From: Octopus vulgaris
Lineage: Eukaryota
Assembly: GCA_951406725.2 (NCBI GenBank)
Contig: OX597838.1
Coordinates: 18,228,001 to 18,292,000, forward strand
Length of the DNA: 64,000 nt
Direction: 5' to 3'
The number at the start of each line of letters is the position of its first letter. Positions within the stretch are counted from its first letter, which is position 1. The translations under genes were made by a program, and so were the position numbers. Positions 10,390 through 10,424 of this stretch are shown here, piece after piece. A model generated the notes under the pieces. It did not search any database. It was not told the origin of the DNA and saw only the letters and a program-made list of their open reading frames with translations.

Positions 10390-10424
10390 TTATGACGTTT
10401 CGAGCATGGCTCTTCATCAGAAAA
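10390..10424 (-). ncRNA. Minimal hammerhead ribozyme motif
   Basis: Reverse complement tttt-CTGATGA-A-gagc-cat-gctc-GAAA-CG-TC-ataa: intact core, palindromic ACGT, weak stem I. Confidence 0.65.

Follow-up and report, generated by a model that had tools for sequence, protein, structure and literature searches.

The motif at positions 10390-10424, which recurs at four more sites in the window (the whole stretch of DNA analyzed, 64,000 nucleotides), raises the question of whether these repeats form a ribozyme-bearing mobile system of their own or belong to a known class of element. The initial annotation favored a separate, microsatellite-associated non-autonomous or retrozyme-like system; in our analysis, the observation as first described was partly confirmed and its interpretation partly supported. 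We consider it very probable that the five repeats are short, decayed pLTR copies of Neptune-type PLEs lying in (TA)n, and that the motif is the known min-HHR, whose cleavage is predicted to require a dimer and on which the making of these copies probably did not depend. The copies and their motifs are as follows.

10390..10424, minus strand: min-HHR motif of subfamily C with a CAT loop (pattern scan and family alignment)
10262..10512, minus strand: solo pLTR-like copy of subfamily C holding the motif at 10390-10424, with (TA)n at its 3' end
13824..14045, minus strand: second copy of subfamily C, core lost, with a helix II and ACGT remnant at 13946-13962
15926..15960, minus strand: min-HHR of family A, helix I GTTT/AAAC, U4 changed to C, helix III ACAT (decayed), U17
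15826..16019, minus strand: family A (Neptune-type PLE) solo pLTR, ending 3' in (TA)n
47468..47502, plus strand: min-HHR relic of family B with a GTAG loop, helix I CTTT/AAAG, A6 changed to U, G12 deleted
47441..47603, plus strand: family B solo pLTR, ending 3' in (TA)n
51249..51284, plus strand: min-HHR of family B, helix I CTTT/AAAG, A6 changed to U, helix III ACAT (decayed), U17
51136..51380, plus strand: 5'-truncated copy of Neptune-type PLE family B, comprising the pLTR and a further ~60 nt, and ending 3' in (TA)n

The five window copies (~200-250 bp) can be aligned over ~200 bp up to a common end at (TA)n and fall into three subfamilies, A (15925), B (47467 and 51249) and C (10390 and 13940). 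The anchor motif at 10390-10424 displays a canonical core at 10420-10414, the extra A, a 4-bp helix II, the ACGT palindrome and C17, with one mismatch in its helix I (TTTT/ATAA); the subfamily C copy that holds it (10262-10512) is ~71-75% identical to its best-matching relatives and hence old, and the best matches within the subfamily show 71-77% identity. The best relatives of the family B copy at 51136-51380 are 91-95% identical, and the family A pLTR at 15826-16019 extends 98 nt from its 5' end to the predicted cut site downstream. Regular-expression scanning of the window found 2 sites with the strict pattern, 3 with one error, 4 with two errors and 5/5 with the stem-II pattern; when the window was shuffled 60 times with an order-3 Markov model, the stem-II pattern matched once overall, and neither the strict nor the 1-error and 2-error patterns matched at all. 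All five sites claimed initially are present, including the remnant at 13946-13962, as are the constant GAGC/GCTC stem II, the variable loops (cat, tct, gtag), the extra A after A9 in the four copies with a core and the run of the copies into (TA)n. The core CYGANGA, said to be common to all copies, fits only two of the five (10390 and 15925), with T at core position 6 in 51249 and 47467, G12 also missing from 47467 and the core lost at 13940. No PLE ORF remnant was found in the window by tblastn. An Rfam scan of the window, which is uninformative for min-HHRs, returned no hammerhead in the best 150 of 345 matches, with microsatellite-driven miRNA models predominating.

A search of the 2.8-Gb genome (in which the window is G000:C25:18,228,001-18,292,000), as had been proposed initially, yielded 558 exact copies with the core CUGAUGA, 12,479 with CYGACGA and 18,967 with CUGUNGA (mutually exclusive cores that share helix II and ACGT), the sum of these three variants being at least 32,004 vs. 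0 for each reversed-pattern control; in addition, at least 105 exact copies carry the G17 variant. Rough extrapolation from 50 copies in 864 kb of unselected DNA (80 10-kb stretches plus the window, not chosen for the element, with the C1 block coming from a stretch with listed matches) would put the genome-wide number at ~1.6 × 10^5. Sorting 214 copies by blast to five natural reference copies gave families A (64), A2 (57), B (53), C (32) and B0 (8); the helix I and core counts that follow exclude 34 pattern-selected and 25 unanchorable copies of the 214. The canonical core CUGANGA...GAAA...UH is found in A2, B0, C and about half of A, with C4 in 19/46 copies of family A, G17 in 23/39 of A2 and U6 in 45/47 of B. 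It is the largest family (B, with the 18,967 exact copies) in which U replaces core residue A6, and a descriptor requiring A6 would overlook it. At N7 of family B, all four bases are common among the first 100 copies listed, with C3, G5, G8, A9, GAAA and ACGU fixed.

Helix I, described initially as differing between copies while still pairing, does so over 4 bp in families A, A2 and B, each pair forming in 93-100% of copies and the fourth being G-C (or G-U) in A, A-U in A2 and C-G in B; the fifth pair quoted along with these is unpaired in 42/47 aligned copies, and the stem is mismatched in the anchor copy. In subfamily C, only positions 1 and 3 pair, with pairs 2 and 4 forming in only 11% and 5% of the 19 anchored copies (13/32 could not be anchored). 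The extra nucleotide between 9 and 10.1 is present, the G10.1-C11.1 pair is G-C in 43/47 copies and the palindromic ACGT has C-G at 15.2-16.2 in 37/47, the remainder being mostly CpG decay. Stem III had been given as ACGT or ACAT; both do occur, and recognizing that families A, A2, B and C contain ATGT as well as ACAT, we regard ACAT as probably a CpG-decayed ACGT. The monomer has no stable helix III, and by architecture this helix could form only in a dimer, as the initial annotation held and in agreement with the published min-HHR model (PMC4209133). With A6U and U4C in the dominant masters, G17 in a small one and no helix I in C, we surmise that catalysis may be weak or lost.

Walking upstream from family A copies, we encountered 1-1.8 kb of CA-rich DNA and then a GIY-YIG domain (L111, L113). 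Among 17 single EN loci (examined together with one 27-kb cluster, taken from 40 EN matches, mostly top-ranked, with L168 chosen for a known motif nearby), 11 carry the family A motif 1.0-1.8 kb downstream of GIY-YIG on the same strand, 5 have no motif in the examined stretch and 1 has a copy of another subfamily. At the 5' side, the family A motif precedes the ORF-start match by 370-472 nt in 15/30 loci, and pLTR homology is found ahead of the ORF start in 18/30, with 5' ends varying from -44 to -715, the arrangement of a canonical partial tandem; at L051, two pLTR copies lie 1 kb apart. For family B, 3/30 loci reach 1.3-1.4 kb into its own RT-thumb/EN region. The motif-bearing pLTR thus flanks an RT-Zn finger-GIY-YIG ORF, at both 5' and 3' in family A and at 3' in family B, providing the linked RT ORF that was to be looked for. 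RT/EN fragments near L051, L052 and L057 were not counted as links because they come from other families, nor was the L155 upstream repeat counted as a pLTR of the same event, being only ~68% identical to the downstream one. For subfamily C we found no ORF link; the upstream walk met an unrelated SINE-like repeat, and 0/24 other loci had a C-type motif; this subfamily, including the anchor copy, is tentatively placed in the group by pLTR homology only.

[quoted passage not shown] Pfam matches to RVT_1 (E=1.5e-5) and GIY-YIG (E=0.0019) are both below curated cut-offs, and the partly frameshifted frame L169:4142-5167 gave nothing in Pfam. The RT frame has 537 longer homologues at E<=1e-20, with 46-61% identity among the 120 listed; most carry PF00078 and PF26215, and some are named from corals, shark, snails and tick. 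Every family A or B ORF that was translated is broken, and hence no active source was seen. According to the motif key of PMC8557442, the elements appear to be of Neptune or Nematis type, with motifs and (TA)n targeting favoring Neptune. Features shared with the Neptune-clade EN+ PLEs (Arkhipova 2006, as summarized in that paper) include the single ORF, RT, a CX2-5CxxC linker, C-terminal GIY-YIG with CCHH, DKG, an HHR near the 3' end, a microsatellite insertion bias and partial tandems; unlike those elements, ours have a long CA-rich 3' UTR (1-1.8 kb) and all translated copies are broken. The same key rejects the Penelope/Poseidon type. Neither the Naiad/Chlamys type (N-terminal EN, DKA, no canonical HHR) nor the Hydra clade (no CCHH, a DKT motif, a CxCX5C linker) matches our elements, and a young Neptune-like family of 781 aa from the GIY-YIG search was rejected as the parent on account of a different 3' end. 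Two loci (L018 and L045) have the family A 5' UTR and ORF start fused straight to the 3' end, as internally deleted derivatives. Three head-to-tail family A RT-EN fragments with a spacing of 6.0-6.4 kb make up a segmental tandem at G000:C8:24,518,000-24,533,000 (L151-L153), in which no hammerhead was found.

The ends of the copies bear on how they were made. Copies have a fixed 3' end at a TATA, ~110 nt beyond the predicted cut site; where a copy is linked to an ORF, this TATA is internal. Internal pLTRs run beyond TTATATA into a unique 5' UTR, and solo copies end there, merging with (TA)n. The whole uncut motif is spanned by 45 of the 50 unselected copies, and 0/50 start within 4 nt of the cut, the nearest being at -5 (a stretch edge), -10, +13 and -14. 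Their 5' ends cluster at -96 to -106 in 12/18 A/A2 copies and at -74 to -107 in 15/30 B/B0 copies, and this boundary coincides with ATATG/ATGATA microhomology to the target. A CCGG(T)CA(T/C)T-like motif common to the pLTRs of A, B and C lies 76-90 nt upstream of C3, at the clustered boundary; we take it to resemble an initiator, which may mark the start of transcription. Four presumed-RNA assembled contig sets, whose contigs carry no end, strand or level information, cover the pLTR. In three loci (L019, L006, L013), a second copy of another subfamily shares the strand of the first and lies 194-557 nt away, and the one in L019 directly abuts the 3' end of the first copy, which would follow if TA targets are common to both.

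We postulate a sequence of events in which: 1) the element would be transcribed from a partial tandem; 2) its GIY-YIG would nick (TA)n; 3) RT would start at the internal TATA of the RNA, with priming by microhomology being possible given that the 3' end at TATA matches the (TA)n target, and would usually stop or run off ~75-107 nt upstream of the cut site, giving rise to the mass of ~200-bp solo pLTRs; and 4) once inserted, the copies would undergo neutral decay and lose CpG. A shared helix III may form when the ACGU palindromes of two motifs pair, whether the motifs sit in the same tandem transcript or in separate RNAs, and cutting after GUH could follow, slowly or with protein help; given that the copies span the whole motif, the templates were presumably mostly uncut (or re-ligated). 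Internal initiation, protein-assisted HHR cleavage and cleavage-independent insertion have been described for an anole PLE (Frangieh et al. 2024, PMC11167929). As with that element, Poseidon of Anolis (PAc), the copies here have internal 3' ends downstream of the HHR, uncut RNA as the apparent template and AT-rich targets. In PAc, however, RT starts in an AC-rich stem-loop inside the ORF without target homology, vs. an end at TATA in the 5' UTR, matching the (TA)n target, in the octopus.

Given that dead copies decay neutrally, the fair test of conservation is between families; core vs. flank identity within families was left out as evidence because anchoring on the motif biases it. C3-H17 identity is 78-93%, as compared with 57-78% upstream and 58-77% downstream, and is higher in 10/10 pairs of natural reference copies, so the core does exceed its flanks, a point on which the initial annotation had made its reading depend. 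Covariation, another check named at the outset, was 0.119 in 47 random anchored copies vs. 0.074 ± 0.008 when shuffled, with 0/500 shuffles reaching it, although this reflects about three lineage events and not 47 independent ones. The structure pairs 81.8% of cells in these copies vs. 15-41% when slid, and helix II displays no compensatory change within this group of 47.

Might the likeness to a hammerhead be a matter of chance in an AT-rich repeat? In favor are the shortness of the motif and the fact that MFE folding, applied to individual copies from the window, did not recover the hammerhead, although no such fold is expected from a non-canonical core. Against this, a generic hammerhead descriptor has 27 matches in the 864 kb vs. 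0 in the reversed sequence, other min-HHR families retain this core with entirely different helices I and II, the position in the pLTR agrees with the literature and the motif fits the published min-HHR consensus (PMC4209133); together with the covariation and the conservation of the core between families, these data leave a chance origin almost no credibility. A more serious contender, which we hold to be a real though minority prospect, concerns function only and is compatible with a PLE origin: the motif may be kept as a folded signal, e.g. a binding or folding element for the PLE protein, that no longer cleaves in these families. A6U in the most successful master (18,967 exact copies; 45/47 family B copies), the common U4C in A, G17 in at least 105 copies, the absence of helix I in C and the lack of any copy beginning at the cut site (0/50) all speak for such a role, as does the finding that catalytic mutants had no effect on in vitro insertion of the anole PLE (PMC11167929). 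In contrast, the variation in family B falls on the free N7 and spares the remaining core, a pattern that selection for a hammerhead core would be expected to produce; moreover, a natural A6C hammerhead has low but detectable activity and viroid infectivity is still supported by U4C, according to Perreault et al. 2011 (PMC3088659).

Two further readings concern the element itself and not the motif. The ~200-bp solo pLTRs could be source elements, i.e. a SINE-like non-autonomous offshoot with a pLTR promoter, moved in trans by the Neptune protein. Clustering of 5' ends beside the shared CCGG(T)CA(T/C)T-like motif would fit this, and so would the preponderance of short copies over ORF-bearing ones (3,663 and 2,679 first-look pLTR candidates vs. 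232 for the ORF 5' end). However, longer copies continue unbroken into the CA-rich 3' UTR and the ORF, the clustered boundary coincides with the target microhomology and an ordinary PLE transcript on which RT starts internally should yield this product as well (PMC11167929); we view such an offshoot as rather unlikely and the non-autonomous reading as not needed. A tandem non-LTR retrozyme replicating via circular RNA would be far less probable still. Animal retrozymes do carry type-I HHRs and derive from PLE pLTRs (bioRxiv 10.64898/2026.07.22.740005), and they share with our repeats the PLE ancestry and short copies without coding capacity. They are, however, defined there as tandem, with arrays and circRNA, whereas the copies here are dispersed singles continuous with an ORF-bearing element; they end at the internal TATA and not at a cut-to-cut monomer length, and the tandem motif copies that the initial annotation suggested seeking are absent from the window and from 30 3-kb loci selected by pattern, the six second copies in the latter being dispersed or nested. 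The retrozyme reading is largely refuted. Of the system proposed at first, then, the hammerhead-type motif of a microsatellite-linked PLE pLTR stands, and its separate, non-autonomous or retrozyme-like nature is unsupported because the repeats are termini of protein-coding Neptune-type PLEs, dispersed without tandems, with decayed copies in the window.

With the repeats viewed as pLTR copies of Neptune-type PLEs, much of what they display is already published. In 2014, Cervera and De la Peña (PMC4209133) defined min-HHRs in the pLTRs of metazoan PLEs, including the extra base after A9, the palindromic 15.2-16.2, the dimer architecture with weak dimer cleavage and the dispersal genome-wide of single copies, thousands in number and "probably related to truncated PLEs"; Lottia and Crassostrea provide some of the examples. 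The dimer model is repeated in a review (PMC6765202), and solo pLTRs are described in PMC3846280. Our motif shares with the min-HHR of PMC4209133 the type-I topology, the U-rich 5' flank, a 3-5-bp helix I, the extra nucleotide at 9/10.1, the G10.1-C11.1 pair, C-G-U-H without loop III and dispersed single copies in thousands, few of them within full elements. Differences from the min-HHR in that paper are as follows: 1) helix II is only 4 bp here vs. 7-8 bp in S. mansoni and 3-8 bp in the published alignment; 2) A6U and U4C of our dominant families are in none of the representatives examined from its supplement; 3) at least 32,004 exact copies exceed the ~4,000-9,000 given for coelacanth and Xenopus.

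The added value is modest and descriptive, in that these Neptune-type families account for at least 32,000 exact copies of the motif in a single genome. Residual interest lies in the A6U core of the largest family and in a natural series of damaged cores. In this most prolific PLE family, the normally invariant A6 is replaced by U, N7 is free and the remaining core is fixed in ~19,000 exact copies; that this natural A6U hammerhead is active, with dimer formation or the element's own protein coming to its rescue, is a speculation to which we give low probability. If true, the A6U family and its sisters (U4C, G17, lost helix I) would be a natural series probing whether PLEs need cleavage. For the role of the PLE hammerhead, a question considered in PMC8557442 and PMC11167929, the A6U, U4C, G17 and no-helix-I families, which differ greatly in copy number and have no copies beginning at the cut site, offer a comparative set. 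Among the papers listed in our literature search, none was on a natural A6U hammerhead, though A6U may be in print; searching for octopus or cephalopod together with Penelope, Neptune or hammerhead returned only PMC8557442 (Craig et al. 2021), in which the linker is tied to the microsatellite bias in Neptune.

Other repeats were seen along the way. A further min-HHR family (L266:4020, L326, L329) has a canonical core, helix I ACAC/GUGU and a longer helix II, and another (L284:4818) has a canonical core with helix II GAAC/GUUC. The young Neptune-like PLE with many 781-aa open frames (L066, L068, L069, as well as L065 and L070) harbors a different hammerhead near its 3' end, with a U3-A8 core variant, the extra base absent and a longer palindrome, ACAUGU. 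In the window, an abundant SINE-like repeat forms tandem arrays of 2-3 copies at 20875-21425, 43622-44108, 55023-55441 and 36343-36594, with periods of 184-186 and 131 bp. Finally, L053:124-4118 (oriented) is a bystander stretch resembling an LTR retrotransposon, with frames that, judging from their translation, we take to be gag-, RT-, RNase H- and integrase-like.
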